A stretch of DNA of 15,140 bases, taken from NCBI GenBank assembly GCA_040754495.1, contig JBFMCO010000023.1:1-15140 (forward strand). The letters are read 5' to 3'. Below the pieces are notes generated by a model. It was not told the origin of the DNA. It made no database searches and saw only the letters and a program-made list of their open reading frames with translations. Position 1 is the first letter of the stretch; every line of letters starts with the position of its first letter. Shown here piece by piece: positions 282 to 15,140 of the stretch. The DNA is from Candidatus Micrarchaeota archaeon. Lineage in GTDB: Archaea > Micrarchaeota > Micrarchaeia > Anstonellales > Bilamarchaeaceae. The position numbers were made by a program, and so were the translations under genes.

Positions 282-293
282 AAAGTTTATAAG
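282..293 (+). promoter_or_regulatory. Archaeal BRE/TATA box for the KaiC-like gene
   Basis: AAAG-TTTATAAG, ending ~22 nt upstream of ATG 315, in an otherwise GC-rich context. Confidence 0.6.
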
Positions 294-314
294 CATTAGA
301 CGTGATTTCCAATC

Positions 315-1010
315 ATGGCTCCTAAGTCGGACAGGGTCCCAACGGGCATAAAGGGCCTTGATGGAATAATGGGCGGCGGATTCGAGAAGAACAGCGTCAA
401 CCTCCTCCGGGGCGGCACCGGGAGCGGAAAGACCATATTCTGCCTCCAGTTCCTCTACAACGGCATGGAAGAGTACGACGAGCCCGGCGTCTATCTCAGC
501 TTCTCGGAGCAGAGGAATTCGCTCATGATGACGGCCGAGGGCGTGGGGTGCCGCCTGGACGACAACGGGGATTTCGCTTTCATCAGGCACTCGCCCCACG
601 AGGTCGAGAGGATACTCAAGGAGGGCGGCGGCACCATCAGGGACGTCATAGACAGCCTGGGGGCCAAGAGGCTGGTCATAGACTCGCTGACGGCCTACTC
701 GCTCTTCTTCGACAGCGATTACCGGAAGAACGAGGGCGTACTTGCCCTCATGGACATCATCAAGAGCTGGAACATCACGACCGTTGTCACCGACGAGAGG
801 GAGGTCGACCTGTGCAGCCTCGAGAACGGCAGGCTGGGGTTCCTCAGCGACAGCATCATCCACATGTACTACCTCCGCACCGATTCCGTCAGGGTGAGGG
901 GCATCGAGGTCGTGAAGATGCGCCATTCCCCGCATGCAGACCGCATCGTGCCTTTCAGGATAGAGAAGAAAGGGATAACCGTTTATCCGGGCACGCAGCT
1001 GCTGGTCTGA
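315..1010 (+). CDS. Single-domain KaiC/RAD55-like RecA-superfamily ATPase
   Basis: Starts with RVPTGIKGLD, then Walker A GGTGSGKT, Walker B RLVIDS and C-terminal RGIEVVKMRHS. These are the KaiC/RAD55 family signatures. Confidence 0.92.
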   Translation: MAPKSDRVPTGIKGLDGIMGGGFEKNSVNLLRGGTGSGKTIFCLQFLYNGMEEYDEPGVYLSFSEQRNSLMMTAEGVGCRLDDNGDFAFIRHSPHEVERILKEGGGTIRDVIDSLGAKRLVIDSLTAYSLFFDSDYRKNEGVLALMDIIKSWNITTVVTDEREVDLCSLENGRLGFLSDSIIHMYYLRTDSVRVRGIEVVKMRHSPHADRIVPFRIEKKGITVYPGTQLLV

Positions 1011-1034
1011 CCGGCGACACAGGAACACCGCGGC

Positions 1035-1144
1035 GGTTTCCGGTTCGGGGCCTCCGGCAACCCGTTCCGCGTTCCCGGTTGAGGGTTCCTGTTTCGTGTC
1101 CAGGGCCTCGCCCCAAAACTCAAAACCCTAAACTCACAACCCCG
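1035..1144. repeat. Heptamer-periodic inverted repeat, copy A (between convergent genes)
   Basis: ggtttcc ggttcgg ... ggttgag ggttcct gtttcgt ..., followed by the opposite-sense arm cccaaaa ctcaaaa ccctaaa ctcacaa. Confidence 0.7.
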
Positions 1145-1438
1145 CTAGAGGTAGCGCTTTGCCCGTATCAGCGCTATCAGGAGCGCGAGCATGGAGAGCA
1201 TCGAAGATACCTGTATGGCCACCGTCATCTCATCCAGCGTCAGCTCGGAAAAATGCAGCGCATGTGAGAAGGCCGACAGGACGGCGAAGGCTACGAGCGC
1301 GGTGAAGACCGGCCTCATTATGTTCCCGGCGCCCATCCTGAAGACCATCGCGTAGAAGAAGACGGCCAGGGAGAGCACCATGGGCGCCCAGTAGATGATA
1401 GGGTTCACCACAAGCGCTTCCGCGTCGAACGCTGCCAT
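1145..1438 (-). CDS. Small integral membrane protein (about 3 TM helices), hypothetical
   Basis: 97 aa with three hydrophobic stretches and a basic C-terminus (IRAKRYL). Starts 3 nt after the stop of the upstream gene. Confidence 0.75.
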   Translation of the reverse strand: MAAFDAEALVVNPIIYWAPMVLSLAVFFYAMVFRMGAGNIMRPVFTALVAFAVLSAFSHALHFSELTLDEMTVAIQVSSMLSMLALLIALIRAKRYL

Positions 1439-1441
1439 GCC

Positions 1442-1852
1442 TCACCTCAGTATCCTGTCCGCGAAGAAGGAGAGCTCGCGGAGCATCTCCTCATTGACAT
1501 GGAGGTATAGCCTGCAGCCCGCCGCCTTCCGCCTTGATATGGCATGCACCATCCTTATAAACTCCTCCCTGCGCTCGATGAAGAGGCCCTCCATGTTGGC
1601 CATCACTATCATCGGGCACCGGCCGCTCTGGCTTATCACGAGGAGCTCGAAGCGCCTTATCTTGTCCCCTTCCATGCTCCCTTCGCAGAAGCGCATGTGC
1701 TCCGCCTTGTCGCGGAAATCGTGGAACGAGGCGCCTTTGGGAAGAGAGTATCCGCCGAAGAATGCGCAGTCGCCTATTATGCACGGGGCCCTGGATGATT
1801 CCACCAGCTCGCGCAGGAGCTTCTCACTGGTCAGGATGAAGACGCTTTCCAT
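1442..1852 (-). CDS. Hypothetical protein, probable inactivated KaiC-like/DUF835-type RecA-fold domain
   Basis: Start moved to MESVFILT (1852) because the ORF-track extension lies in a T-rich intergenic tract. The C-terminal half (IVMANMEGLF...EFIRMVHAI...LYLHV...ELSFFADRIL) follows the pattern of KaiC C-terminal strands. No Walker A. Confidence 0.6.
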   Translation of the reverse strand: MESVFILTSEKLLRELVESSRAPCIIGDCAFFGGYSLPKGASFHDFRDKAEHMRFCEGSMEGDKIRRFELLVISQSGRCPMIVMANMEGLFIERREEFIRMVHAISRRKAAGCRLYLHVNEEMLRELSFFADRILR

Positions 1853-1858
1853 GGGGAT

Positions 1859-1886
1859 ATAAAGGAAAAGAAAAAATAAAAGAAGC
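1859..1886 (-). terminator. Oligo-T tract downstream of the major pilin (archaeal intrinsic terminator-like)
   Basis: The minus strand reads CTTCTTTTATTTTTTCTTTTCCTTTAT right after the pilin stop codon. Confidence 0.5.
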
Positions 1887-2348
1887 TCAGGTGCACTTGC
1901 CGACGAGCGGCTTGTCACCGAATTGCTTCTTTCCCGAGATGCCGCCCTGGTTGAAGGTCAGCACGACATCGTACTCGAACCCGTCGCCTGACGCGCCGCA
2001 GGTCGAGCCCAGGGTCCCGCTCACGCTCCTCTCCTCACCGCCCTTGAACGTCGTGTTCGTGACGTTGGTGAGCGCGTCGCCGTCGAATGCGACTTCGGTC
2101 AGCGTGAGCTTCTCGCTGAGGCGGTTCGACATGACGAGCGTGACAGACGTGTTGTCTAGCTTGAAGCTCGTTATGGAGAACGGCTGCGCGCCGCTCCAGT
2201 AAGAAGCGCTCTGAGATTCCCTTGCCGCCCCTCCCACGCCGGGGAAGAAGCCGAGCAGGGCGATTACCACCAATGCCACGATGAGCACGACCGCCAATAT
2301 GACGAGGTACTCCGTGGCTCCTTGTCCCTTCCTTGTTGAGGATACCAT
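1887..2348 (-). CDS. Archaeal type IV pilin (class III signal peptide), probable major pilin
   Basis: MVSSTRKG|QGATEYLVILAVVLIVALVVIALL has K-G at the cleavage site, Q+1, E+5 and a hydrophobic helix. It also has two C-terminal Cys, three sequons, its own SD (AGGTG) and a TATA-like element. Confidence 0.9.
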   Translation of the reverse strand: MVSSTRKGQGATEYLVILAVVLIVALVVIALLGFFPGVGGAARESQSASYWSGAQPFSITSFKLDNTSVTLVMSNRLSEKLTLTEVAFDGDALTNVTNTTFKGGEERSVSGTLGSTCGASGDGFEYDVVLTFNQGGISGKKQFGDKPLVGKCT

Positions 2349-2383
2349 GGTTACACCTAATTTGTTGGAGATACTGACGCTAG

Positions 2384-2400
2384 CTTTTTAAGCTTTTTGG
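2384..2400 (-). promoter_or_regulatory. BRE/TATA-like promoter of the major pilin
   Basis: The minus strand reads CCAAAAAGC-TTAAAAAG about 35 nt upstream of ATG 2348. An SD-like AGGTG lies just upstream of the ATG. Confidence 0.5.
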
Positions 2401-2429
2401 GGCTCTCCGACGTGTTAGGGCGGCCAAAA

Positions 2430-3455
2430 TCATATGAACTGGGAGAGCAGCCCCGAAAGGAAGGCCTGGGCTACGTAGAACATTATCAGGGACGATATCG
2501 CTATTATGGGGACGTACTTGATGCCGTAGAATGGCTGGCCCCGTGTTATTATGCCGAGCATCAGGGAAACGAGCGAGCTGGTCATCAGTATGAGGGCCGA
2601 GGACACCATCACTATGAAGTCCGGGGTTATGCTCACCCTTCCGGTGAAGAAGGGGAGGTTGGTCGAATCCTCGCTGAAGACCGGTATGCCCTTGACGAGC
2701 TTGACGAACTCCACAGACACGGAAAGCAGGAACGGCATGATGAAGATTACCATGAAGGCGAGGAAGATGACGTGCGAGCGGGTGATGAGGACGACCTCCT
2801 CCCTCATCTCCTCGACTCGCCGGACGTAATCGGCAGAGCTTTCGAGGATGTTCGCCAGGCGGCCGCCGCTCCGCATGGCCCGGTCGAAGAAGCCGACCAT
2901 GTTCCTGAATATGGGAGAATCTATGCGCTCCGCGAGGTCCAGGAACATCACGGATATGGACTCCCCGCCGGTCAGCTTCTTCGCGGATTTCTTGACCTCC
3001 TCGGAAAGGGGCCCGAACTCCGGCCGGGATGCCACCACGAACGCGTTCAGCGGGGTCATGCCGGCCCTGAGGTTGGCCACCACCAGCAGCAGGAAATCCG
3101 GGAGCGCCTTCTCGGTCCTTTTCGTGCGGTCGTCAATCAGGTAGTAGAGGTGGGTGTAGAACGCGAAGAGGGCTAGGAGGAACGCGAGGAACGCGTACAG
3201 GAGCGACTGGGTTACCAGGCCGAGCATCCTCTCGAATGTCTCGAACGGGTCCGCGTATGTGTAGATGGCCGACACGAAGGGGAGGATGGAGGCCAGTATG
3301 CACACGAGCGTCAGCAGGGCAAAGCGCCTGCCGGCCCACTCCAGGACGTCCTCGTCCAGGCCCGCGAAGACGAGCCTGCGCTCTATCCAGCGAATCCAGT
3401 CCTCTGGCAGGACCTTTCCGAAAAAGAGGTATTCCCTCTGGAGGAAGCCCGCCAT
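2430..3455 (-). CDS. Type II secretion system F family (TadC/PilC-like) pilus platform membrane protein
   Basis: ALPDFLLLVVANLRAGMT, FGPLSEE and SGGRLANILE T2SSF motifs with several TM segments. TGATG-coupled to the upstream gene. Confidence 0.9.
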   Translation of the reverse strand: MAGFLQREYLFFGKVLPEDWIRWIERRLVFAGLDEDVLEWAGRRFALLTLVCILASILPFVSAIYTYADPFETFERMLGLVTQSLLYAFLAFLLALFAFYTHLYYLIDDRTKRTEKALPDFLLLVVANLRAGMTPLNAFVVASRPEFGPLSEEVKKSAKKLTGGESISVMFLDLAERIDSPIFRNMVGFFDRAMRSGGRLANILESSADYVRRVEEMREEVVLITRSHVIFLAFMVIFIMPFLLSVSVEFVKLVKGIPVFSEDSTNLPFFTGRVSITPDFIVMVSSALILMTSSLVSLMLGIITRGQPFYGIKYVPIIAISSLIMFYVAQAFLSGLLSQFI

Positions 3456-4327
3456 CAGTATATCACCGGCCTCACGCTCTTGACATAGCCTATCAGCACC
3501 AGCTGGAGCATGGCTGAGAACAGGAGTATCACGAAGATTGTCTGCTCGCTTATCCCTATGCCGCTGAACGTGGAGAGTATGATGAGGAACGTAACGCCTA
3601 TGGAGGGGATGGCGGCCGCAATCAGCATGTAGAGGAGGGTGAGGAAATTGAGTTTGGTCGCGTACTCGCGGGCCAGGTTTATCTGGTGGTTCTCGAGGGC
3701 CGATAGGGTGGTGCGGACCGCGTCCTTGAGGCTGGCCCCGCCCGAGACGGCGTTGAGAATCTGCAGTATTGCCTTCTTCAGGTACTCGCTTTTGGTGCGC
3801 AGCGCCATGCGTTCCAGGGCCACCTCCTCGATTACGCCGGCGTTTATCTCCCTCACAGTGTCCGCGAACTCCTTCGACACGTTCCCGTAGTTGGCCGTCG
3901 CAATGTTTACCATGGAGTCGTAGAGCGAGATGCCCGACTGTATCTGGACGAGGAGGTCGCGCAGCGCGTAGAGGAGCTCGAGGTTTATCTTGAGGGCGAC
4001 CGTCTTTGCCCGGATGCTTGGGTAGAACACGTAGAAGAGGAGGAAGAAGATGAGCATGAAGAACGAGCCTGCGGCCGCTGGCAGGAGGTTCGGCGCCGCC
4101 TCCCTGGCCGCCAGAACGAAGTAGGATATGCCGAACATGACGAGAGATATGACGAATGCGGAGATGAGCGAGGCCGCGAGATAATCCTCGTGGGGCACCC
4201 GGACGTCGGCCTCAAGAAGGTCGTACTTGACGAACGGGAAGACGCCCGAGAGCTTGCGGCCGAACCACCGGAAGCGCCTCCCGACCTCCCTCATGGACTT
4301 CTCGGAAAAGAGATGGAACGGGATCAT
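3455..4327 (-). CDS. Second T2SS F family (TadB/TadC-like) membrane protein
   Basis: True start is MIPFHLF at 4327 (TGATG overlap with the ATPase stop). Motifs include ELLYALRDLLVQIQSGISLYDSM, YGNVSKEF and SGGASL. Confidence 0.9.
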   Translation of the reverse strand: MIPFHLFSEKSMREVGRRFRWFGRKLSGVFPFVKYDLLEADVRVPHEDYLAASLISAFVISLVMFGISYFVLAAREAAPNLLPAAAGSFFMLIFFLLFYVFYPSIRAKTVALKINLELLYALRDLLVQIQSGISLYDSMVNIATANYGNVSKEFADTVREINAGVIEEVALERMALRTKSEYLKKAILQILNAVSGGASLKDAVRTTLSALENHQINLAREYATKLNFLTLLYMLIAAAIPSIGVTFLIILSTFSGIGISEQTIFVILLFSAMLQLVLIGYVKSVRPVIY

Positions 4328-6048
4328 CAGATGACCTTCGCGGGCGGCTGCCCCTTCTCTATCGCAGCGAGCAGGGCCGAGGGCTCCTTGTAATATGTCT
4401 TTATCACGCGGCCGATGCTGTCCACGTCTTCCACGCCGAACTTCGCCATCCACTCGAGGACTTTGGTCTTCTCGGATGCGTCCGACGCGATTTCCCGGGC
4501 GGTCATGCCGGTATGGAGGTTCAGCGACTCGATGTACCTCTTCGGCTCGTTCACGCGCTCGAAGCTGTCGTTCCTGGCCCTCCACTGGTAGATGTGGTTG
4601 ACCGAAGGCTTCTCGACGAACTCTGCTATCTCGGACACCTCGAACGTCTTCCTAATGTTCTTCTTCCTGTCGCGGAACTGGGACACGATGAGGTCTATGG
4701 ACTCGAGCTCTATGACCGGCACCTCTATCGGCGCCTCGGTAAGCCTGCGCAGCGCCTCGCTGGCGGTGTCGGCGTGCATCGTGGAATACACGCTGTGCCC
4801 CGTGTGCATGGCCTCGAAGAGGACCTGGGCCTGGGTCTTCTCCCTGATTTCGCCGACCAGGATGCGGTCCGGCCTCATCCTGAGCGAGTTTATCATCAGG
4901 TCCAGCATGGTCACCTCGCCAAGACCCTCTGGGTTGGGGAGGCGGGAGACCATGGGGACCCAGTTCCAGTGCGAAGCGGAGAGGACGAGCTCCCTCGTGT
5001 CCTCTATGGTGATTATCCTCTGGGAGGTGGGGATGAAGTTCGAGATGGTGTTGAGCAGGCTGGTCTTCCCGGATGCCGTTCCCCCCACGACGAGGATGTT
5101 CAGCTCGTAGTGTATTGCCTGCCACAGCATCGAGGCGAGCTCCGGGGCGATGGTCCGGTTCTTGATGAACTTGACCACCGTCCAGGGGTCCCTGGAGAAG
5201 CGGCGTATTGTTATCGTGTTCCCGCGCCTGGATATCGGGTAGAGCGTGGCGTTCACGCGGTCGCCGCTTATGAGGTGCGCGTCAAGGAGCGGCGCGAGGG
5301 ATGTTATCTGCCGCCCTACCCTGCGCCCTATCTGGCTCGCGTAGTTGGCGGTCTCGTCCTCCCCGCGCAGGAAGACGTTGGATTTCATCCAGCCGAACTT
5401 CTTGTGATACAGGCTTATCGGAGTCTGGGACGTGTTGATGATGACTTCCTCAACGTTGTCGTCCGAGAGCAGGTCTTCCATGTCGCCCAGGCCGAACATC
5501 TTGTAGGAGATGAAGCCGCAGACGACCTTCATGTTGGCCTCGCCGAGCGAGCCGAGGATGCTCTCCGTCACGCTGCAGCGCTTGAGCAGCACTTCGGACT
5601 TCCTCTCCACGTCGCTCATCTGCGTGCTCTCGGGCGGGAGGATGCGGGCGACCTCGTCCTTCACGTATTCGAGGTATATCTCCCCATAATGGCTGAAGAG
5701 CGGGGGGTAGAGGTAGTACCTGGGGGCGAGCTCCTTCTCGTCGAAGACGATGTTCACGGTAGCGACGAGGTGCCCGCCGAAGGCCTCGATGTCGTACTTG
5801 TCCAGCACCCTGCCCCTGGGCTTCTCCTCGCTCTTTGGCGGCATCGCCTTCTCAAGGCTGGCATAGGGCTTCTGGAACGGCAGGGGAGGGTAGTGGATGC
5901 TGACTATGCCGCGCTTCTCCATCGCGAGCAGGATTTTCTCGACCACGTCCTCCTTGGCCTTCAGCTGGGCGGCCAGCTCATGGAGGTATATATTCCGCCT
6001 GGTCTCGAGGATTTCCACTATCTTGTCGATGGTGGTCCGGACGAACAT
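4327..6048 (-). CDS. Type IV pilus/type II secretion assembly ATPase (CpaF/VirB11-like, PilB/ArlI superfamily)
   Basis: Walker A GGTASGKT, Asp box TIEDTRE, Walker B LRMRPDRILVGEIR and His box HTGH...TMHA. Confidence 0.95.
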   Translation of the reverse strand: MFVRTTIDKIVEILETRRNIYLHELAAQLKAKEDVVEKILLAMEKRGIVSIHYPPLPFQKPYASLEKAMPPKSEEKPRGRVLDKYDIEAFGGHLVATVNIVFDEKELAPRYYLYPPLFSHYGEIYLEYVKDEVARILPPESTQMSDVERKSEVLLKRCSVTESILGSLGEANMKVVCGFISYKMFGLGDMEDLLSDDNVEEVIINTSQTPISLYHKKFGWMKSNVFLRGEDETANYASQIGRRVGRQITSLAPLLDAHLISGDRVNATLYPISRRGNTITIRRFSRDPWTVVKFIKNRTIAPELASMLWQAIHYELNILVVGGTASGKTSLLNTISNFIPTSQRIITIEDTRELVLSASHWNWVPMVSRLPNPEGLGEVTMLDLMINSLRMRPDRILVGEIREKTQAQVLFEAMHTGHSVYSTMHADTASEALRRLTEAPIEVPVIELESIDLIVSQFRDRKKNIRKTFEVSEIAEFVEKPSVNHIYQWRARNDSFERVNEPKRYIESLNLHTGMTAREIASDASEKTKVLEWMAKFGVEDVDSIGRVIKTYYKEPSALLAAIEKGQPPAKVI

Positions 6049-6070
6049 CGCTGATACTGATTAGGCATGG

Positions 6071-6080
6071 AATAAATATG
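6071..6080 (-). promoter_or_regulatory. TATA-like box upstream of the pilus ATPase
   Basis: The minus strand reads CATATTTATT, ending ~23 nt upstream of ATG 6048. Confidence 0.5.
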
Positions 6081-6110
6081 TTTCTCCGCTCCCCTCAGGG
6101 GATACCGGCG

Positions 6111-6258
6111 GGTTTCCGGTCTGGGGTTTCCGGTTTCCCGATGTAAGCGTTCTTCCATGGGCCCTTTGTCCGGATTGCCGGGCAGGCGGGCGGGTTTCCG
6201 GTTTCCGGCCCTGCATTCGGCCAGAACCCAAAACACACAACTGGAAACCGGGGACCGG
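6111..6258. repeat. Heptamer-periodic inverted repeat, copy B
   Basis: ggtttcc ggtctgg ggtttcc ggtttcc ... ggtttcc ggtttcc ... ccagaac ccaaaac acacaac tggaaac cggggac. Confidence 0.75.
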
Positions 6259-6275
6259 ATGCCGGCCCCGCCATG

Positions 6276-7112
6276 CTACGTGCTCCCTATCGTTATCCGC
6301 GAATCCCTGCGGACCTTGCCCTGCGAGTATCCGATTGAGGCGTTGTATGAGTACCCAAGAGGCTCGTTGAGCTGCTTCGAGAGCGCCATGACTACGGTCA
6401 CCGTAGTGTTGGAAGCGCGGAGCAGGAGGGAGCCTTCGGGGGGAAGGTTGCCGTATGTGAGGTTCACGCTGCCGCCCTGGAGGCTGAACAGGTAGCTCTT
6501 GAGCGTGGTGGAGGATATGTTGCCGGAATCCGTGAAGCTCCCGGTATCGTCCTCGTAGTTGATTACGATGAAGGTGTCGCCGCCCGGGCTCCAGGCCCAG
6601 GGCGTTGTGTTCAGCCTCTGGCCGGACGCGGTGATGTTAATCGTGACGTTCTTCAGGCCGGTCTGGTTCGTGGAGTTGTAGGTGGAGAAGAGGGCGGTCT
6701 GGTTCTGCGCGCTGTAGTTCCTGGAATAGTAGTTGCCGTCCGAGAAGAGGAGCTCGTACGAGCCGTCCCGCATCGGGGAGAGGTTGAGGGATATGTTCGC
6801 GCCGATTCTCGGGCTGTAGTTGCCTTCGATGAAATCGCGGTAGTCCGAGAGGAGCGCGCTCGTGTCCCTCTCATCGAGCGAGTCGCCTATCACGATGGAG
6901 ACGTTCGGGCCGGAGCGTGATGCGCTCACGTTCGCGGCCATCTTCTCCAGGTCGTACGCGACGTCGCTCGTATAATACGATGGGTACGCGGCCGGGGTGA
7001 GCTCGGATATGCGGTTGGCCTCGCGTATCACGAAGCCCTGGTAGGAGAGATAGAGGAAGAGGAGGAGCGACGAGAGCAGGAGCACCACCATCGTGTTCAG
7101 GTATCCTTTCAT
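6276..7112 (-). CDS. Large minor pilin-like glycoprotein (class III-like signal)
   Basis: MKG|YLNTMVVLLLSSLLLFLYL followed by an Asn/Ser/Thr-rich beta-type domain with 16 N-x-S/T sequons. Last gene of the minor pilin operon. Confidence 0.75.
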   Translation of the reverse strand: MKGYLNTMVVLLLSSLLLFLYLSYQGFVIREANRISELTPAAYPSYYTSDVAYDLEKMAANVSASRSGPNVSIVIGDSLDERDTSALLSDYRDFIEGNYSPRIGANISLNLSPMRDGSYELLFSDGNYYSRNYSAQNQTALFSTYNSTNQTGLKNVTINITASGQRLNTTPWAWSPGGDTFIVINYEDDTGSFTDSGNISSTTLKSYLFSLQGGSVNLTYGNLPPEGSLLLRASNTTVTVVMALSKQLNEPLGYSYNASIGYSQGKVRRDSRITIGST

Positions 7113-7502
7113 CTAGTCCGCCTCCCTGAGCCATGCGCGCGCGAGCGCCGTGCGCGTGACGTTCCCGTCGGAATACGTGCGGTAGGCGACGATGAGGTCG
7201 TTGCCCATCCTGCCGCACCCCGGCTTCTTGACCACCGCGGTCCGGTTGTTCGCCTTCTCGAATTCCACCTCGATGCAAACGGAGGCAGGAAGCTCCTTCA
7301 GCACTTCCTTCATGCCGTTCTTGTCGCCATCGCTCAGCCTGCCGCTTTTTTCGAACGAGGTCAGGACGTCCATGCCAAGGGCGCGCAGGTATGCCTCGTT
7401 CTTGGCCTTCGGGAACGGGTGGACGGCCGCTACGAGCATGACTATGGCAAGGAAAAGCGTCAGCGCGAAGACCGCCTCGCTGGTCGCTATGAATCCCCTC
7501 AT
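7113..7502 (-). CDS. Minor pilin-like protein (class III signal)
   Basis: MRG|FIATSEAVFALTLFLAIVMLV. Start 7502 gives an ATGA overlap with the upstream stop and good spacing from the SD GGTGAGG; 7508 is an alternative start. Confidence 0.8.
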   Translation of the reverse strand: MRGFIATSEAVFALTLFLAIVMLVAAVHPFPKAKNEAYLRALGMDVLTSFEKSGRLSDGDKNGMKEVLKELPASVCIEVEFEKANNRTAVVKKPGCGRMGNDLIVAYRTYSDGNVTRTALARAWLREAD

Positions 7503-8095
7503 TCCCATACCCTCACCACCACGATTACCTCAGTCCCGTTCAGAAGTGCCGCGCGCTCGAGGACGGACGTTTCGCTCTCGTTCGAGGAATTGCCAAACGA
7601 ATAGAGCAGGTTGTCGTCGAGGTCGACGACCTCCATCTGGAATTCCCGCGTCGGGATGCCGAGGGCCTCCTTGAAGAACTCGTAGTGCGTGGAATTCAGC
7701 GCGGCCATGCGCTCCAGCTTCCGGGCGCTGAGGACGTTGCGCTCGTCTGCGAGTCCGATGGACTCCACCGTGCTTTCGTTTATTTCGCCGAGCTCGCTCC
7801 AGTTTGCCGGGTCCCCGGGCGAAATCACGAGCGCATCGGAAACGCGGAGGTTTGCCGCGAGGAGGGAGCTTCCCTCCATGGAGCCTTTCGAAACGGCCTC
7901 CATATTCTGCCATATCAGCAGGTAGAGGATGAGTATCATGAAGAGCAGGGCTGCCGAGAAGAGGAAATCGAAGCTCCACACCTGGCCGCGGAAAGTGCGG
8001 TTTCCGGTTTCGTGTTTTTGGTTTTGGGTTCTGGCCGAAACACAAAGCTCTGAACCCGAAACCGGCTGCTGGATGCTGAAGGCCGGCTGCCGCAT
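7499..8095 (-). CDS. Minor pilin-like protein with an extended leader
   Basis: RG|QVWSFDFLFSAALLFMILILYLLIW class III motif. ATG 8095 lies 4 nt after the upstream stop and 10 nt after GAGGAG, and is the nearest start codon upstream of the cleavage motif. Confidence 0.75.
   Translation of the reverse strand: MRQPAFSIQQPVSGSELCVSARTQNQKHETGNRTFRGQVWSFDFLFSAALLFMILILYLLIWQNMEAVSKGSMEGSSLLAANLRVSDALVISPGDPANWSELGEINESTVESIGLADERNVLSARKLERMAALNSTHYEFFKEALGIPTREFQMEVVDLDDNLLYSFGNSSNESETSVLERAALLNGTEVIVVVRVWE
7999..8092. repeat. Heptamer-periodic inverted repeat, copy C (inside the predicted prepilin leader)
   Basis: ggtttcc ggtttcg tgttttt ggttttg ggttctg ... cccgaaa ccggctg ctggatg ctgaagg ccggctg. 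Positions 8021-8039 are the exact reverse complement of 6216-6234 in copy B. Confidence 0.75.
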
Positions 8096-8099
8096 GTGC

Positions 8100-8483
8100 C
8101 TAGTGCTCCTCAATCCCGACCACCCCGCCCATGTTCCGGATGACAATCTCTGAAGAATTTATCTGCGTCGTGTTTATCTGGTCCGTGAGAAGGGCGAAAT
8201 CCTGCACCGAGTTCCCGACCTCCACCAAAAGATACCTTCCTGAGACCGTGACGTTCGCGCTTCCCTTGGCGTATGAGAGGTTGTAGCTGGCGTTCTCCCC
8301 GCCAAGGTGCACGTTGTCTATCGCGAGCCCCAGCGTGTCAGCCACCTCCCTCGCGGCGAGGGTATCCCGCGTCTGCGCGAAATTCGAGAGCTGCGACATA
8401 GCGAGCGATACCGCTATGACGAAGACCAGCAGGTAGGCGGAGAGGGAAAGGAAGAACTCCTGCGAGAGCTGGCCCTTCATCAT
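8100..8483 (-). CDS. Minor pilin-like protein (class III signal), first gene of the operon
   Basis: MMKG|QLSQEFFLSLSAYLLVFVIAVSL has Q+1 and E+5. A TATA box lies ~24 nt upstream. Start is 8483 or 8480. Confidence 0.82.
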   Translation of the reverse strand: MMKGQLSQEFFLSLSAYLLVFVIAVSLAMSQLSNFAQTRDTLAAREVADTLGLAIDNVHLGGENASYNLSYAKGSANVTVSGRYLLVEVGNSVQDFALLTDQINTTQINSSEIVIRNMGGVVGIEEH

Positions 8484-8504
8484 ACTGCATAGACGGGCCA
8501 AATT

Positions 8505-8515
8505 GTATAAATGTT
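8505..8515 (-). promoter_or_regulatory. TATA box of the minor pilin operon
   Basis: The minus strand reads ACATTTATACA, ~22-30 nt upstream of ATG 8483. Confidence 0.55.
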
Positions 8516-8861
8516 ACCAGCGCCGTACGGCCTCTGACACCATGGCAGAGAACGCCCTGCTCTTTGCAATCATCACGGCCTTTATCTCCTTCTTGCCCTT
8601 GGCGCGGTACAGGTACTCGTAGCCTCCGCGGGAGCGGTTGCGCTGGTCGCGCTCGGCGAGGTTCTTTGCCATGAGCGAAGAGAGGCCCCGCTGCACGACC
8701 GAGCGGTCCTTGCGGGAGCGCGAGGCCAGCGCAGAGACCGGCATCCAGTCGCCGGCCTCCAGCAGCCGGAGGAACACGCGGACCTCGCGCTTCGAGAGGC
8801 CGAAGGAGCACGATAGGAGGTCTTCGGCCGAGAGGTCTATGCAGGTCATGTCTATTCCCAT
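8514..8861 (-). CDS. Winged-helix transcriptional regulator (TrmB-like/COG3355-type)
   Basis: DLLSCSFGLSKREVRVF...VSALASRSRKDRSVVQRGLSSL...RGGYEYLY gives an HTH plus wing pattern. Start is 8861 or 8849. Confidence 0.85.
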   Translation of the reverse strand: MGIDMTCIDLSAEDLLSCSFGLSKREVRVFLRLLEAGDWMPVSALASRSRKDRSVVQRGLSSLMAKNLAERDQRNRSRGGYEYLYRAKGKKEIKAVMIAKSRAFSAMVSEAVRRW

Positions 8862-8909
8862 ATCAGCACCTGTGCAATTTCGCCCTTGATTGGGCATTAC
8901 TCAGTCCGG

Positions 8910-8942
8910 TTTAAAAAAACGATTGTGCAGTAATTTTGCACA
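8910..8942 (+). promoter_or_regulatory. TATA box plus palindromic operator candidate in the divergent regulator/glutaredoxin spacer
   Basis: TTTAAAAA at 8910-8917, TGTGCA-N7-TGCACA at 8924-8942, and an extra TGTGCA half-site at 8871-8876. Confidence 0.55.
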
Positions 8943-8952
8943 GATGATTATC

Positions 8953-9318
8953 ATGGAAAGCGACAAGGAGCTTGATGCCATCAGGAAGAAAAAGCTCGAA
9001 TCGGGCAGGCAGCCCAGGCCCGCGGAGCCGGACGTCACCGTCTATTCCACCCCGACATGCCCGTATTGCACGATGGCGAAGGCCTATCTTGCGGGGAAGG
9101 GGGTGGAGTTCAGGGACATCGACGTGTCCAAGGACAGGGAGAAGGCCCGCGAGATGGTCATCCGGAGCGGTCAGGGCGGGGTCCCGGTGCTCGAGATAAA
9201 CGGCAGGATGATAGTCGGCTTCGACAGGCAGCTCATAGACGACGCGCTCGCGAGGAAGCCGCCGCCGAAAAGGGATGAATTCCTCCAGAACATCTTCTTC
9301 GACCCGTTCAGTAAATGA
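8953..9318 (+). CDS. Glutaredoxin/NrdH-redoxin family protein
   Basis: VTVYSTPTCPYC active site, GGVPV cis-Pro motif and IVGFD. Start moved to MESDKE (8953), downstream of the TATA box. Confidence 0.92.
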   Translation: MESDKELDAIRKKKLESGRQPRPAEPDVTVYSTPTCPYCTMAKAYLAGKGVEFRDIDVSKDREKAREMVIRSGQGGVPVLEINGRMIVGFDRQLIDDALARKPPPKRDEFLQNIFFDPFSK

Positions 9319-10105
9319 CGATTACGGGCTCGTAGTACTTGCGCACGTTCCCGCCGTAAAGCCGGCTCTCGAGCATGCGCTGGAGCTCGGATGTCGCCTC
9401 GCTTTTCGAGCGATGCAGCCAGCCGAGCTTCATGTTCAGCCTGATGATGCGGTCAGGGATGAGGTGGCGCGTTGATTTCGGCGGGAAGGGCGTGTGGGCC
9501 TGCGCCGCCTTGATTATCTCGTCCTTGGTGTATGCGCGCCGGTAGAAGACGGATTTGCCCGCGGCCTGCTTCTTCTCGATCTCCTGCTCCGGGATATATT
9601 CCACGCTCCCTTTTTCGAGAAGGGAGAAGACGTAGTTCTGCTCCTCGACCATCTCCATGAGCTTGTAGCTTCCGGGGTTTATGAGATGGCACTCCTTGTC
9701 CTTCGACATCAGCATGAACGGGGCCTTCAGGCCATCGACCGCTTCCTTCCCGGCCTCGTAATCGACCTTCTCGTGCTTGAGCGAATCCAGGTGGAATATC
9801 TCGTCCGGGCTGAGGGCCACGACAGGATACCAGGTGCCGACGGATATGAGGTCGCTCTGGTAGTCCACGACCTGGCAGGTGGCGTGCGGGCATTCTATTA
9901 TCTCAAGGACCTTCAGGCGGTGGTTCCCGTCAAGGACTACGCCGGAGTTCTTGTCGACAATCAGGGGGTCGACGAGCTGGCCGATGTTGAGCATGGCCTC
10001 CTTGAGCCTCTTCAGGTTGTAGGAGATGACTTGCTCGTGGGAGAGAAGCTGCTTGACTTCCCAGATTTCCAGGTTCCGTAGCATCTCGTCTGCCAGTTCG
10101 GACAT
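9308..10105 (-). CDS. serK: SerK-like ADP-dependent free L-serine kinase (ParB/Srx fold)
   Basis: HEQ, DGNHR, DY...V.TWYP and R...TKDEI...PKSTRH..P appear in the same order as the motifs I recall for Thermococcus kodakarensis SerK (HEQ, DGHHR, DY...VYTWYP, PKTTRH). Confidence 0.82.
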   Translation of the reverse strand: MSELADEMLRNLEIWEVKQLLSHEQVISYNLKRLKEAMLNIGQLVDPLIVDKNSGVVLDGNHRLKVLEIIECPHATCQVVDYQSDLISVGTWYPVVALSPDEIFHLDSLKHEKVDYEAGKEAVDGLKAPFMLMSKDKECHLINPGSYKLMEMVEEQNYVFSLLEKGSVEYIPEQEIEKKQAAGKSVFYRRAYTKDEIIKAAQAHTPFPPKSTRHLIPDRIIRLNMKLGWLHRSKSEATSELQRMLESRLYGGNVRKYYEPVIVIY

Positions 10106-10125
10106 AACCCGACTGTGGGCACATA

Positions 10126-10136
10126 TGTTTAAAAGC
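10126..10136 (-). promoter_or_regulatory. TATA box of serK
   Basis: The minus strand reads GCTTTTAAAC, ~21-30 nt upstream of ATG 10105. Confidence 0.55.
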
Positions 10137-10199
10137 TATCGGAATGCCATGCGACGGATGACGAAATCGGGGGCGATAAATTTCACGCCAGGGGGGCAG

Positions 10200-10263
10200 C
10201 GTTTCCGGCACCCTGTTTCCGGCATCCCGTACTGGAAACCGGAAACCCGAGACCGGAAACCGC
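10200..10263. repeat. Heptamer-periodic inverted repeat, copy D
   Basis: gtttccg gcaccct gtttccg gcatccc gtactg gaaaccg gaaaccc gagaccg gaaaccg. Confidence 0.75.
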
Positions 10264-10338
10264 ATAAGATTAGCAGTTATGGCGAAGAAAAAAGAAGCTA
10301 CTGCGAGCACGAGGTGCGAGCTAACAGGAAGTTTTGGG

Positions 10339-10359
10339 CCGCCTTTTACTAAAAGGCGG
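10339..10359. terminator. Perfect hairpin downstream of the tRNA
   Basis: ccgcctttt-act-aaaaggcgg: 9-bp stem, 3-nt loop. Confidence 0.5.
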
Positions 10360-10360
10360 A

Positions 10361-10380
10361 TGCGACCGCCGGGAATTGAA
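10361..10380 (-). repeat. 20-bp direct repeat of the tRNA-Gly 3' end
   Basis: tgcgaccgccgggaattgaa at 10361-10380 is identical to 10419-10438. Confidence 0.9.
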
Positions 10381-10418
10381 TCCCAATTCCCGGGGGACCC
10401 AAAATTTTAGAAAAATTT

Positions 10419-10489
10419 TGCGACCGCCGGGAATTGAACCCGGTCCGCGAGATTGGCAACCTCGAATCATACCGATAGACTACGGTCGC
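10419..10489 (-). tRNA. tRNA-Gly(GCC), no encoded CCA
   Basis: The minus strand folds as GCGACCG/CGGTCGC acceptor stem, anticodon arm CGAGG-TTGCCAA-TCTCG, T arm CCGGG-TTCAATT-CCCGG and discriminator A; 71 nt. Confidence 0.95.
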
Positions 10490-10618
10490 ATAAACAGTTC
10501 ATGGACAGGGGACGCGCTCTCCTCTGCCGCACAAAAAGCGAGAAAAGGTTGTTTGATAAGTAATTAAATAATATCGAATCCCGTGCCCCACATACAAAAA
10601 AAACCACAAATAAAAACA

Positions 10619-10626
10619 TTTATAAA
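10619..10626 (+). promoter_or_regulatory. TATA box for the large orphan gene
   Basis: TTTATAAA, 25 nt upstream of ATG 10652. Confidence 0.6.
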
Positions 10627-10651
10627 CTGTTTCCGGGATATTCATAGGCGT

Positions 10652-12967
10652 ATGACCGGTCAGAAGAAGGGAGGGGGCTCGCTCACTGAGAGGTATGGCA
10701 TTCCTCCGGTAACGGATGCCAGGCTCTTATCGTGCAGGATGCTGACCCGTCCGCCTTCCACCGACGCAGCGCCGGCCCCGCGCATCTGCTCCCAACCCGA
10801 GGCCGAAGAGCCGATTCTGCTTAAAAGGAAGACCAGCCGCCCGCCGCCTCCGCCGCCAGCGAATGGCCGCAGGAGCGAGCGGACGATGGAGCTCGACGAT
10901 GAGGCGCTGTTTGGCATAGTCGAAGGCTCCGGCAGCCAGCCTACAGATGAAGTCTCGGGCGGCGACATACTGTCTGAGGAGCCTATCCGGCCATCCCCAG
11001 AAGGGCAGGCCCAGCCAGCCGGCGCAGCGAGGAGCGAGCGGACGATGGAGCTGCGCGCCGATGAGATTATTGACGTTACAGAAGGCTCCGGCAGCCAGCC
11101 CATAAAAGTCACAACCGCGGACATAGTCGTGGAGCCTGCGCCGGCAAAGAGCAGGCCTCCGCCGGTACCGCCCCCGCGGGAAAGGCCGAAGACGGTCAGG
11201 CCGCCACCGGCCAGGGAGCCGAGCGAATCGCTCATCACGTCTCTTGCGGACCTCCAGAGGCTGGGCGCGGAGCCGAGAATACGTGAGGCGCCGGCAGCCC
11301 CGCCGGCCGTTTCGACGAATTCGGTCGAGGTTTCGCTTAAGGACCTGCTCAGGCTTGAAGAAGAGAGGGTAGCGGCCGAGAAAGCTGGCAGGGAGGCGAA
11401 GGAGAGGGCCGCGCAGGAGCTGTCGGACAAAAGGTCCGGATTCCTCGGCGTGCTAAAGGCCAGGAAGGACGCCGAGCAAAGAAAGATTGACGATGAGTGC
11501 GAGGCGCTGGAGCGCGAGGAGGCATCGAGAGCCGTGGACGAGCTGCTGGAGGGCCTTGAGCCTGACACTGCCGATGCTCCTGTGGAGGAGGCGAAGCCGC
11601 CTTCGATGGAGATAAGCATCTCGGTTGAAATGGTGCTCGGGATTCCATGGGACGAGGCGCATGCCACTTACAGGCTGGACGAGGGGGAGATTTCCGCGAG
11701 CGAAAGCGTTCTTCCAGAAAGGGCGCTGCGCTGGCTGCTTCCGGTCCCGCCGATAGACACGGAGGACGCGGCCGGGAGGTCTGTGCTCGACCGCTTCGCG
11801 AAAGAGCCCACCGTAACGCTCAATGGCAAAAGATACTATGTCATAAGCGGCGAGGAAGGATTCGCGGACGCGCGCAGGGTGGCGCGGACCGGGAATACTC
11901 TGCACATCTGGCAGAGCGCCATGGTGGATTACGAATTCCTTGGCGAGCGCGACCCTTCCGGAGCGACGCTCATGACCGGCGAATGGTCGCTCGACTTGCG
12001 TTTCCACAAGCTCAGCGAAGAGGAGATTGCAGCCTTCGGCCACGCGCTCCCGGAGGGAAAGCCGCTCTGGCTCCACCCGCTCCCCGATTCTGCGGTGCAG
12101 GGGGACATGGAGAAGGCGGTGCTGGAGGCATGCGCGCGGATGCAGGCGAAGCGCGTGCGGCTAAACGGCAGGGAATACTTCGTCTTCGAGGTAAAGGACA
12201 TCGAGGAGTGGCGCTCGGTGACGTTCATGTTCGAGAAGACGCGCCTCGCTTCCAGGAAGGACCAGTACCTGAACATCTGGCCCGAGGCCGAGAACGGGCA
12301 GAAGCTCCTCTCGGCAGATCACGGCTTCGGCATGACCTATTACGGCCCTGCAGGGCCTCCGCTCATGCCGCAGGGCGGGTTCGTGAGGCCGCATGGCATG
12401 GAGCTCGAGCACCTGGTCTTCCTCTATGAAGGGGGGAAGAAGAGATACCTCTACGCCATGCCTGACAAATTAGGCGATTTGGATGCGGACACGCTGAACT
12501 TCCTCGTATCGGTCGGCAACCGGGAAATCGAGCTTACCGGCCACACCCCGCTCGTCTCCCTCCAGGGCAGGTGGTACATGGCGCTCCAGTACCCGATTCC
12601 GGAATCAAGGGCGACGTCCATGGAAGGCAACCGGATAAGGGTGTTCCCGAAGGCCATCAGCCCGAGGGACGCGCTCGAGGAAGTGAAGAAGAAGCTGCAG
12701 GAGAAGAGGAAGGACAGGGAGCCGCCCCAGATACTCCTGCCGAGCGTGGCCGAATACCGGGTGCCGCTGCTGCGGATGTTCCCCGAGGGGGAGCCCCGCT
12801 ACCTGGTTTATGTGGAGCCCTCATCGCGCCACCTTGTGCGCGACAAGCCCATCGTCTCGCTCTTCCGCGAGGGGGAGAGGGACACCTACCTGGTCCTTAC
12901 CGAGCCGCACGAAGGGGCGGTCGCGGTCGTCAGGCGCAGGGATATCATCGTGCCGCTCGAATCCTGA
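10652..12967 (+). CDS. Large hypothetical protein (~771 aa): Pro-rich disordered N-terminus with a tandem repeat, charged coiled coil and repeated C-terminal domains
   Basis: Long ORF with host-like codon usage. Start moved to MTGQKK on the basis of the TATA box position. No recognisable family. Confidence 0.8.
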   Translation: MTGQKKGGGSLTERYGIPPVTDARLLSCRMLTRPPSTDAAPAPRICSQPEAEEPILLKRKTSRPPPPPPANGRRSERTMELDDEALFGIVEGSGSQPTDEVSGGDILSEEPIRPSPEGQAQPAGAARSERTMELRADEIIDVTEGSGSQPIKVTTADIVVEPAPAKSRPPPVPPPRERPKTVRPPPAREPSESLITSLADLQRLGAEPRIREAPAAPPAVSTNSVEVSLKDLLRLEEERVAAEKAGREAKERAAQELSDKRSGFLGVLKARKDAEQRKIDDECEALEREEASRAVDELLEGLEPDTADAPVEEAKPPSMEISISVEMVLGIPWDEAHATYRLDEGEISASESVLPERALRWLLPVPPIDTEDAAGRSVLDRFAKEPTVTLNGKRYYVISGEEGFADARRVARTGNTLHIWQSAMVDYEFLGERDPSGATLMTGEWSLDLRFHKLSEEEIAAFGHALPEGKPLWLHPLPDSAVQGDMEKAVLEACARMQAKRVRLNGREYFVFEVKDIEEWRSVTFMFEKTRLASRKDQYLNIWPEAENGQKLLSADHGFGMTYYGPAGPPLMPQGGFVRPHGMELEHLVFLYEGGKKRYLYAMPDKLGDLDADTLNFLVSVGNREIELTGHTPLVSLQGRWYMALQYPIPESRATSMEGNRIRVFPKAISPRDALEEVKKKLQEKRKDREPPQILLPSVAEYRVPLLRMFPEGEPRYLVYVEPSSRHLVRDKPIVSLFREGERDTYLVLTEPHEGAVAVVRRRDIIVPLES

Positions 12968-13020
12968 GCGCGGAAACGGGCTGCCGTCTTGTTTTTATAC
13001 AAAGAATGAGAGGTGTCTAG

Positions 13021-13046
13021 ACTGGAGACCGGAAACTGAAAACGGG
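13021..13046. repeat. Heptamer repeat half-copy E in the nre/endonuclease leader
   Basis: actggagacc ggaaact gaaaacg has the same GAAAC-type arm as copies B and D. Confidence 0.55.
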
Positions 13047-13054
13047 TAACCCCA

Positions 13055-14365
13055 ATGTCTATCGGCAAGGGAGCGTATCTCAAAAAAATCACGGACGGCA
13101 TCCAGCGCTGGCGCACAGTGGAGGTGGGCGACAGTATGGACGGGTCAGAGTTATCCATTTCAAAATCCGTGATAGGTTTGGGGGATTTGCCCGGAGAGAA
13201 GGTTTATGTCCAACTAAACGACCAAACTAAAAAATGGCTTTTTGATACCGCCTTAAAATTATCGGGCGGTTATTCCAGGTTAGCCAAAGCCGTGGGATTG
13301 CCACTTAACAGAAGAGGCAAATGCAAAATTCTCGAATCTTCCCGCAAAAAAAAGATTCAACTCAATGTATTGAATCTGCTTGTACGATATCTTGAAACAA
13401 AGGGAATTGACAGCAGGAAGGAGATAGAAAGTTCGATAACTTTACTGGCCGTGAAAAGAGGTAGCTCTAGAAAAGGCGCAAATTGCCTTTACAGGCCTAA
13501 AATTCCGTTTGATTTCTCCACAGAATCAGGCGCAACTGTAATTTCTGCGTTATTGCACGATGGCGGGATAGATTCCAGGCTGCACCCCCACTATTGCAAT
13601 CCATTAGACAAAAATTTACGAATAAAAGTCTCAGAAGCATTTCGGAAGGTTTTCGGTGAGTTTGACTTTTTAAGAGCGGAGCCTGAAAAAAACGGCCAGT
13701 TATACTTTCCAAAAATTGTCGGTGTGGTGCTTGTTTATGGACTTGGTATGATGTGCGGAAGAAAGGTAACGAATAATCCCGGAGTCCCTGATTTTATCTT
13801 CATTGCATCGGAAAAGGTACGGTCAGCATTTTTGCGGCAGGCATTTGATGATGAGGCATATGTACACCGCAAATACAGATATATCTCATTAAAATTGGCT
13901 TCAGCGAGCAACGGACCATCCAGATTGCTACTGGATTTACAGAAGATATTGGCGGGCCTTGGTATCAAATCCTACGGCCCGAGGTTTTGTGAAACATACG
14001 CGGACACAAATGGGATCGTTGCCACAAAATGGGCCGTTGAAATCCATCACCATGAGAATCTTCTCAAATTCCTGAACTTGGTGGGATTTGAGTCGGTAGA
14101 TAAACAAGCTAGGCTAAAGGAGATTGTAGCCGCTCTTAAACAGCCGCATTTTGCCCTGAAGGAAAAGCCGGGAATACTCTTGGAAGCATGCAGGAAAGTC
14201 CAGGGGACCAATAATTTCATAACCAGCCGTGAGCTGGCTTTGAAGTTAAACAGAAGTCAGGCACTTGCAAAAAAGGAGATAAGAAGGTTACGAAGAGATG
14301 GAAAGTTGGCATTAGTTGGAAGGAAAAGAGGAAATGGCGCAGCTAGATACGTCATGGTGGGGTAA
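13055..14365 (+). CDS. LAGLIDADG homing endonuclease fused in frame to the first 31 codons of host nre, with flanking HTH-like domains
   Basis: Motif 1 ISALLHDGG (13541-13567) and motif 2 [10 protein letters not shown] (13829-13858). HTH-like segments [13 protein letters not shown] and [24 protein letters not shown]. The N-terminus [13 protein letters not shown]...MDGS matches the downstream nre start. Confidence 0.88.
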
Positions 14366-14475
14366 TGATCGGGAAAGGGGCTTACCTGAAAAAAATAACA
14401 AAAAACATCAATTTTCGCTCGGTGGAGGTTAACGAAAAAATGGAAGGGTCCTCTCCCCCTAGTGTTTTTGTTGGC
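13147..14475 (+). mobile_element. AT-rich free-standing homing-endonuclease element inserted in the 5' end of nre, carrying a replacement nre N-terminus
   Basis: Composition shifts sharply (hand count: 13201-13260 is 20/60 GC, 12601-12660 is 35/60 GC). Both junctions fall after a shared GGGTC (ending 13146 and 14450). A/T-ending codons persist through SPPSVFVG (~14475), then host GC3 usage resumes. Confidence 0.8.
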
Positions 14476-15140
14476 GCATGGAACTACCCGAAGGTCTACG
14501 TGGGGCCGATGCTCGCTCCGTATTGGGGCGACACATCCGAACTCGACACCCCGGAGAGCTGGATACCGAAGGGACGGAACCAGGATGATATAATCCGCTT
14601 CAGGCTGGACCTCGTGCGGGGAAAGCACAGGGTGGGCATCAAGGACCTCGACAACCGCCTCGTGGGGAAGCTCCAGGAGATTTCGCTCGCTGAAGGCAGC
14701 GTGGAGAGCGAGGCCCGGTTCAGGCACAAGCCGAGGGGTTTTTCTTTCAACGAGGAGCACCAGCCGTTCGGCCCGAGCGCGGGCATCGAGCGTTTTGACA
14801 TCGGCAACGTGAGGTGGGAGAGGAATCTCGAGAAAGCGTATTATGATACGGACCTGAAGGCGGCCGAAGCCCTCTACAAGGCGTATTCCGAGGGCGTGCT
14901 GTTCTCCCAGATGCAGAAGGCGTTCTCTACCGGGACGATGGGCATCAAGCAGAACCGCAGGCTCGTGCCCACAAGGTGGTCCATAACAGCAGTCGATTCC
15001 GCCCTCGCAGACCACCTCTACGACAGCGTGAAATACCATGACGTGCTGGACTCGTACCACGTCTACGAGTTCTCGAGCCTGAACAACTATTATGCGGTCA
15101 TACTGCTTCCGACGCCATGGCAGTACGAGTGGATAGAGGC
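14365..15140 (+). CDS. nre: Archaeal DNA repair protein Nre (partial, runs off the right edge; absent from the ORF track)
   Basis: Frame 1 from ATG 14365 (TAATG overlap) reads [12 protein letters not shown]...[21 protein letters not shown]...[14 protein letters not shown]...WQYEWIE, which are hallmark Nre motifs. No stop before the window end. Confidence 0.93.

Follow-up and report, generated by a model that had tools for sequence, protein, structure and literature searches.

The nre gene at the end of contig JBFMCO010000023.1, from assembly GCA_040754495.1 of Candidatus Micrarchaeota archaeon, is interrupted near its 5' end by a free-standing open reading frame (ORF) for a homing endonuclease of the LAGLIDADG type, and an nre-like N-terminal coding segment lies on either side of the insert. 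The whole stretch analysed, positions 1 to 15,140 of the forward strand, is referred to below as the window; the contig is part of a 1.6-Mb, 80%-complete metagenome-assembled genome (MAG) whose nre relatives are annotated as Micrarchaeota (e.g. P0016). Relative to an empty-site allele the gene has gained an insert, its second N-terminus is foreign, the same layout recurs in other lineages and the catalytic core of the endonuclease is intact. We regard it as likely, with a probability of about 0.8, that this homing endonuclease gene (HEG) belongs to a cassette that travels with a spare nre 5' end and that came from a donor allele already bearing it. Should this be right, homing endonucleases can colonise essential or conserved archaeal chromosomal genes with neither an intron nor an intein, by way of a spare gene end, a strategy documented, in the literature searched, for fungal mitochondria.

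The two nre N-termini and the limits of the foreign DNA

All features described here lie on the forward strand. An ORF of 436 codons (13055-14365) opens with an nre N-terminal stub of 31 residues and continues, in frame, into the AT-rich sequence of the endonuclease; its stop codon (TAA, 14363-14365) overlaps by one base the start of a second ORF, in the junction TAATG (14363-14367), and this second ORF encodes Nre (Pfam Nre_N, E 3e-81). We call the nre N-terminus at 13055-13147 copy 1 and that at 14365-14451 copy 2. Over the whole duplicated part they agree at 20 of 29 residues and at 60 of 87 nucleotides (69%), and since their local DNA alignment reaches a score of 59, where 200 shuffles gave at most 30, they are truly homologous. 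Of the 20 conserved residues, 10 are encoded differently, synonymous sites are nearly saturated, and the longest exact run common to the two copies is 8 nt. A preliminary description of this DNA had drawn attention to a stretch of 11 residues, identical in protein (11/11) and different at 8 of 11 third codon positions, and both sequence and translations confirm it: copy 1 reads atc ggc aag gga gcg tat ctc aaa aaa atc acg where copy 2 reads atc ggg aaa ggg gct tac ctg aaa aaa ata aca. Its view that the copies are not a recent local duplication agrees with the near-saturation of synonymous sites, and its view that excision by recombination between them would be limited agrees with the 8-nt ceiling on shared runs.

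The composition of the gene changes abruptly within its 5' end. Guanine-plus-cytosine content at third codon positions (GC3) is 18/37 (0.49) over nre codons 1-37 and 180/221 (0.81) over codons 38-258 (Fisher p=7e-5), maximum likelihood places the change after codon 38 (nucleotide 14478), and for the replacement codons 1-40 the values are 0.47-0.49, against 0.81-0.82 in the remainder. The codons directly after copy 2 (TCT CCC CCT AGT GTT TTT GTT, 14452-14472), described earlier as unlike the GC3-rich rest, end in G or C in one case out of seven. Copy 1, by the same measure, stands at 23/31 (0.74) in its first 31 codons and the endonuclease body at 178/405 (0.44). AT-rich 5' codons are not normal among the GC-rich relatives, since uninvaded GC-rich congeners have N-terminal GC3 of 0.73-0.89, equal to that of the rest of their genes; in low-GC congeners (GC 0.36-0.45) the N-terminal value is 0.36-0.50.

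On sequence comparison, copy 1 is the native orthologue and copy 2 is foreign. Copy 1 matches P0015, a close uninvaded nre allele, at 24 of 25 residues; copy 2 matches it at 27 of 39, though codons 41-258 of the same gene are 94% identical to it. When residues 1-40 alone were compared with 5.8 billion proteins, the closest were P0168 (31/39) and P0167 (30/39), which have in common with copy 2 a form one residue shorter and an exact run of 26 residues. P0168 is 71% identical in the rest of nre, and its amino-acid composition is of the AT-rich type. Best matches listed separately for the 5' end of the gene and for its remainder, a check proposed in the preliminary description, thus disagree, copy 2 does not cluster with the host clade, and the suggested capture from a previous, AT-richer host is upheld. 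Among the same-genus nre alleles recovered with their N-terminus, 36 of 36 of which are uninterrupted, the Ser of PPS is encoded by TCN in 35 (AGT in copy 2) and the motif ends in FIG in 33 (FVG in copy 2). The single allele with the AGT codon of copy 2, L003 of genome G010, is HEG-less and GC-rich; it also has GCA TGG AAC, encoding AWN, and several AT-ending codons in the motif stretch, which may be what an earlier invasion left behind once the HEG was lost.

The interruption has a counterpart in environmental DNA. Groundwater sequencing run X1 yielded a 353-nt contig that joins position 13131 to position 14485 with 49 nt between them. Added to the 77 nt at 13055-13131, this spacer gives 42 codons, exactly as many as lie before Tyr43 in uninvaded P0015, and it amounts to exactly the 17 codons of intact P0015-type nre; because the spacing matches that of P0015, the contig represents the empty-site allele, from a strain that is 90-98% identical to the window in the flanks.

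The same contig helps to place the edges of the foreign tract. On the left, its match ends at 13131, and native nre codons 1-25 (13055-13131), recognised by their GC3, their match to P0015 and the X1 contig, now form the start of the endonuclease ORF. The last six nre-like codons of copy 1 (13132-13147, encoding DSMDGS) mismatch X1 and resemble copy 2: the final 11 nt, ATGGACGGGTC, match ATGGAAGGGTC in copy 2 at 10 of 11 positions, in register, and use GGG TCx where most relatives have GGC AGC. These last ~16 nt are probably a donor-type stub that arrived with the element. Met28 (13136), which lies among them, may be the endonuclease's own start, and it is where the gene caller began the predicted protein P0003; gene callers mis-annotate loci of this kind, here by calling the HEG from an internal Met. 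The right-hand edge lies at ~14478-14484 by both the GC3 switch (after codon 38) and the point where X1 rejoins (codon 41). The foreign tract probably reaches slightly past 14475, to ~14484, so as to include the AWN codons, which are probably imported because P0168 reads FVGAWN where P0015 reads FIGKAG. Replacement codons 1-40 (14365-14484) are accordingly delimited by the GC3 change, the resumption of X1 and the best match to P0168, and the host-type rest of nre, codons 41-258 (14485-15138; GC3 0.82), runs off the contig end.

Identity between the window and its HEG-less relatives is uneven around the insert. Compared with runs X1 and X2, the region 12500-15140 is ~98% identical at 12500-12634, 12612-12912 and 15012-15140; identity to the HEG-less strain is lower nearer the insert, 89-93% at 14485-14840 within nre and ~70% at 13012-13060, in the 5' untranslated region, which also shows three small indels. 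At the protein level, P0015 and P0002 show 13 differences in residues 41-196 and none in residues 197-258. The gradient could be the trace of an outer conversion tract, GC-rich and derived from an intermediate host, or of nothing more than uneven evolutionary rates.

The endonuclease and its recurrence beside nre

The endonuclease body (13148-14362; GC 0.43) is that of a free-standing, double-motif LAGLIDADG enzyme. It passes the Pfam LAGLIDADG_3 model narrowly (E 8e-5; 23.3 bits against a curated cutoff of 22.5) and matches, in NCBIfam, only the endonuclease parts of intein-containing proteins. Motif 1 (VISALLHDG, 13538-13564) has an invariant Asp, and motif 2 (LRQAFDDEA, 13832-13858) an invariant Glu, at motif position 8. 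In alignment A1 of 12 homologues, D142, G143 and G144 are invariant, as are Q235 to E240 (P0003 numbering), so that both motifs are present and both catalytic acidic residues, D142 and E240, are retained throughout. An AlphaFold 2 (AF2) model (pLDDT 89.2, pTM 0.78) shows a helical domain at the N-terminus, then a two-fold LAGLIDADG core, with a winged helix at the C-terminus, and Foldseek matched it with probability 1.00 to the endonuclease domains of TliVMA, PI-PfuI and PI-SceI and to I-Tsp061I and I-DmoI; WhiA was also among the matches. The predicted structure confirms the pseudo-dimeric alpha-beta-beta-alpha-beta-beta-alpha LAGLIDADG fold. The winged-helix-like domain (14165-14356; residues 344-407 of P0003) is modelled as three helices and a hairpin and has weak Pfam matches to HTH_11 and HTH_24, whereas the N-terminal domain has no match in Pfam. 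Matches in the wider family (478 clusters at E<=1e-3) all begin at query residue ~35-40, and the first 31 residues are therefore not part of the enzyme.

The insert has the marks of neither an intein nor an intron. Pfam revealed no Hint splicing domain and the ORF ends in ...YVMVG followed by TAA, which sets it apart from inteins. An Rfam E-value scan of 12800-14700 found no intron family, its sole hit being a chance match (E 0.33) to a ribosomal-protein leader. A search for an intein-bearing or fused long Nre returned one C-terminally extended Nre with no intein, which is weak evidence. Putative expression signals lie at either end of the endonuclease ORF. Upstream, TTTTTATA (12992-12999), a TATA-box-like element of the sort found in archaeal promoters, lies 56 nt 5' of the ATG at 13055; it would belong to the native nre promoter, from which endonuclease and nre are probably transcribed together. 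Downstream, a Shine-Dalgarno-like GGTGGGG (14356-14362), whose GGTG core ends 5 nt 5' of the nre ATG, may serve re-initiation, and the TAATG overlap suggests translational coupling of endonuclease and nre.

Similar arrangements occur in other archaea. There are 12 close homologues of the endonuclease, at 45-63% identity and all with intact ORFs, and across loci from genomes and metagenomes every HEG homologue of at least 35% identity adjoins nre. At seven loci (L036, L037, L038 and L044-L047) the HEG lies directly upstream and abuts or overlaps the nre start; it is downstream of nre at L039, L049 and L050 and convergent with it at L048. At these last four loci the endonuclease stands at 35-40% identity. 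The idea that the replacement segment was carried in with the element gains from the presence of the same GC3 mosaic at three other loci, where HEG, nre N-terminus and rest of nre have values of 0.43, 0.50 and 0.76 (L036), 0.23, 0.22 and 0.57 (L037) and 0.29, 0.38 and 0.57 (L044). The switch follows codon 115 in L036, 55 in L037 and 54 in L044, and the motif occupies codons 32-38, 44-51 and 59-66 respectively; it falls within ~5 codons of the motif in L037 and L044, and the conversion tract of L036 spans ~115 codons. Displaced N-terminal stubs stand upstream of the HEG at L038 (E 3e-16, containing a stop), L047 (E 4e-9, frameshifted and running through GSSPPSV) and L044 (E 1e-3). Stubs or GC3 switches at other loci end near the SPPSVFVG motif, and in the window the codons of this motif (14452-14475), whose coding is donor-type by comparison with the 36 same-genus alleles, are likely to be the neighbourhood of the putative homing site.

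Occurrence of the HEG is sporadic: it is present in one of 40 species of the genus, with no close homologue in the 39 others, and close copies were found in 2 of 21 genomes of an Aenigmatarchaeota family, that of L037. At L047 the nre stub (1472-1579) is separated from the endonuclease gene by an ORF of 238 amino acids (1666-2382) that has no counterpart in Pfam, so the insert there carries an extra gene. More distant relatives of the endonuclease, at 25-28% identity, are found at L040 and L042 (~2700-4300); judging from the translations, the C-terminus just before the endonuclease at both loci presumably resembles ribosomal protein uS19, and the gene after it at L042 is one that we take to resemble uL22. 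The endonuclease family apparently targets other conserved loci as well. The genomes of L036 and L037 each encode, at a separate locus, a second paralogue of the endonuclease, 28-30% identical (G056 contig 58 and G057 contig 14).

Competing explanations and a proposed route of invasion

Several points weigh against a homing cassette that imports its own spare gene end. Cleavage of naive nre near the motif is something we infer, and both junctions are known from assembly alone. The displaced stubs end at different places, after CGKERC in L044 and after SSPPSV in L047, and this leaves a single, constant insertion site unproven. No congener rises above 70% nucleotide identity to copy 2 in a codon-level comparison, and when 14365-14484 was searched as DNA against the other 39 species of the genus it gave only matches of ~30 nt. 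Self-immunity by recoding of copy 2 is plausible, but comparison of codons and residues with the 36 same-genus alleles revealed no substitution unique to copy 2, and wobble changes are often no obstacle to LAGLIDADG enzymes; that synonymous recoding confers immunity is thus not established, and the synonymous differences look like ordinary divergence between lineages and not directed recoding. Finally, the HEG is intact in 12 of 12 homologues and its divergence tracks that of nre, which also fits long co-residence.

The alternative that survives best, improbable as we judge it to be, is that the LAGLIDADG protein is a domesticated, vertically inherited DNA-binding partner or regulator of nre, akin to WhiA. 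Such a role would suit the intact, overlapping ORFs and their parallel divergence, the adjacency to nre in every close homologue (sometimes downstream or convergent), the appearance of WhiA among the fold matches and the extra helix-turn-helix domains. It is difficult to reconcile with the sporadic distribution (1/40 species of the genus, 2/21 genomes of the Aenigmatarchaeota family), with the compositional mosaics and displaced stubs, which show repeated insertion, and with the invariance of both catalytic acidic residues, which WhiA has lost.

A still smaller chance attaches to an artefact, in which metagenome assembly spliced the HEG-nre segment of an AT-rich organism into a GC-rich nre at conserved sequence. 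The window is a MAG contig that ends inside nre, GC-poor congeners exist, and the HEG sequence was absent from all three groundwater sequencing runs compared with the window (word shares were small), all of which speak for such a chimera. It would, however, require two switches, both of which kept the frame and created TAATG; copies 1 and 2 lack any common exact run above 8 nt able to mislead a k-mer assembler, and independent assemblies hold the same mosaic (L036, L037 and L044) and the stubs (L038, L044 and L047).

We give marginally less credence to a local tandem duplication of the nre 5' end around the insert, followed by divergence in situ, with nothing imported. The copies are indeed collinear homologues that flank the insert, as a duplication would leave them, but copy 1 is ~95% identical in DNA to the HEG-less strain whereas copy 2 has changed at 31% of positions and its synonymous sites are nearly saturated; moreover, copy 2 has the GC3 of the HEG and not of the host and lies nearer to P0168 than to the host-clade allele (sharing the 26-residue exact run and the one-residue-shorter form), and the same mosaic occurs in three other lineages. 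Least credible of all is selection for weak mRNA structure at the translation start, without foreign DNA: nre here must re-initiate after the HEG stop, and AT-enriched first codons are frequent among genes, but uninvaded GC-rich congeners (0.73-0.89) and copy 1 (0.74) keep GC-rich N-termini, half of the synonymous changes do not run toward A/T (ggc to ggg, gga to ggg, tat to tac, ctc to ctg), and non-synonymous donor-type features (FVG, AWN, MEGS and the one-residue deletion) are left unaccounted for.

For the favoured homing cassette, we propose that a free-standing HEG entered nre beside the codons of the conserved GSSPPSVF motif. Its enzyme would cut naive nre near those codons, and repair of the double-strand break from a donor allele already bearing the cassette would copy the HEG together with the donor's nre 5' end; the empty-site allele, the sporadic distribution and the GC mosaics speak for such cleavage and conversion indirectly. 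The donor would already have had the order stub, HEG, N-terminus, and homology would have been used on both sides, leaving short conversion tracts. The mobile unit would then consist of the donor-type stub (~13132-13147), the endonuclease ORF and donor nre codons 1 to ~40 (14365-14484), its GC3 of 0.44-0.49 in a host of GC3 0.8 being the likely mark of an AT-richer earlier host. On arrival, the unit would have pushed the native first 25 codons upstream, where their promoter and start codon now appear to serve the endonuclease ORF; nre would be re-started at the TAATG overlap, by coupling and with GGTG 5 nt upstream, so that neither intron nor intein is needed. The donor-type 5' end would be refractory to cutting, as it must be since it is co-resident with the enzyme, and the insert would be stabilised, precise loss by repeat recombination being presumably rare because the copies have no exact run above 8 nt.

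A broader reading is possible, but we hold it only tentatively and think it rather unlikely as a whole. Cassettes specific to nre would circulate in DPANN archaea of at least two phyla, with the spare nre 5' end as their immunity determinant; the nested conversion tracts (an AT-rich core at 13132-14484 in a GC-rich shell ~10% diverged, fading to ~98% identity within 0.5 kb) would record serial passage through hosts, and the M-D-G-S with which the endonuclease starts would be a fossil of the nre codons just upstream of the homing site. 

Independently of this broader reading, cassettes of the favoured kind would be natural records of DNA exchange among DPANN lineages of very different GC content, and strain typing and phylogenies built on a single conserved gene can be distorted where that gene has a short foreign tract at one end. 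New LAGLIDADG specificities could be drawn from the enzyme family, whose target, the stretch of nre that encodes GSSPPSVF, would be predictable.

Comparison with known systems and the surrounding contig

The nre cassette works like the mORFs of fungal mitochondria but is a mirror-image variant in another kind of genome. These elements make 'gene hybrids' of atp6 in Allomyces macrogynus and of atp6, atp9, cox2 and nad3 in Glomus sp. (Beaudet et al. 2013, PMC3630166); the endonuclease ORF carries a foreign C-terminus, and DNA identity is 91-98% for the native copy and 64-81% for the inserted one (PMC3630166). In both systems a free-standing LAGLIDADG ORF, which can be in phase with the host gene, lies within a conserved gene in the absence of intron or intein, one end of that gene is duplicated, and the inserted end is read as horizontally acquired together with the endonuclease. 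Here, as there, the native copy groups with close relatives, to which it is near-identical, and the inserted copy is divergent and foreign, its DNA diverged (69% identity, within the range for mORFs) and its protein conserved. The differences are that the cassette resides in an archaeal chromosome and not in an organelle, that it replaces the N-terminus and not the C-terminus, that the endonuclease takes the host promoter and start while the host gene is re-started at TAATG, and that the target is a repair gene, nre, with a family recurring in Micrarchaeota and Aenigmatarchaeota.

Free-standing seg and mob genes of T4-like phages spread by 'intronless homing', in which flanking markers are co-converted (Edgell et al. 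2010, PMC2988022). They resemble the nre cassette in that the HEG lies outside any intron or intein; spread by double-strand-break repair that drags donor flanks along, and a donor allele that itself resists cleavage, would also be common to both. Donor-type sequence extends here to ~14484 on the right and ~13132 on the left, as co-conversion would leave it. The T4 enzymes are, however, of the GIY-YIG or HNH type, usually sit between genes and cut hundreds to thousands of bp away, whereas the nre cassette has a LAGLIDADG enzyme inside a coding region, a duplicated gene 5' end and, on the nre side, a co-conversion tract of only ~10 codons beyond the motif. In structure and by profile, the nuclease core is matched best by the LAGLIDADG endonucleases of archaeal inteins (PI-PfuI, TliVMA, PhoVMA), with which the cassette shares insertion at a highly conserved motif of a housekeeping gene. 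Unlike inteins it has no Hint domain and its ORF is closed by a stop codon; what makes the host protein whole is the spare gene end in the DNA and not protein splicing. Literature searches for LAGLIDADG proteins in DPANN, homing endonucleases with NreA and free-standing archaeal LAGLIDADG proteins produced no description of such a cassette.

Upstream of nre, the window holds an ORF of 794 amino acids (10583-12967) with no Pfam match at E<=0.01. At its other side the contig end (15140) falls within nre, which could mean that the assembly was broken by heterogeneity between strains with and without the HEG.

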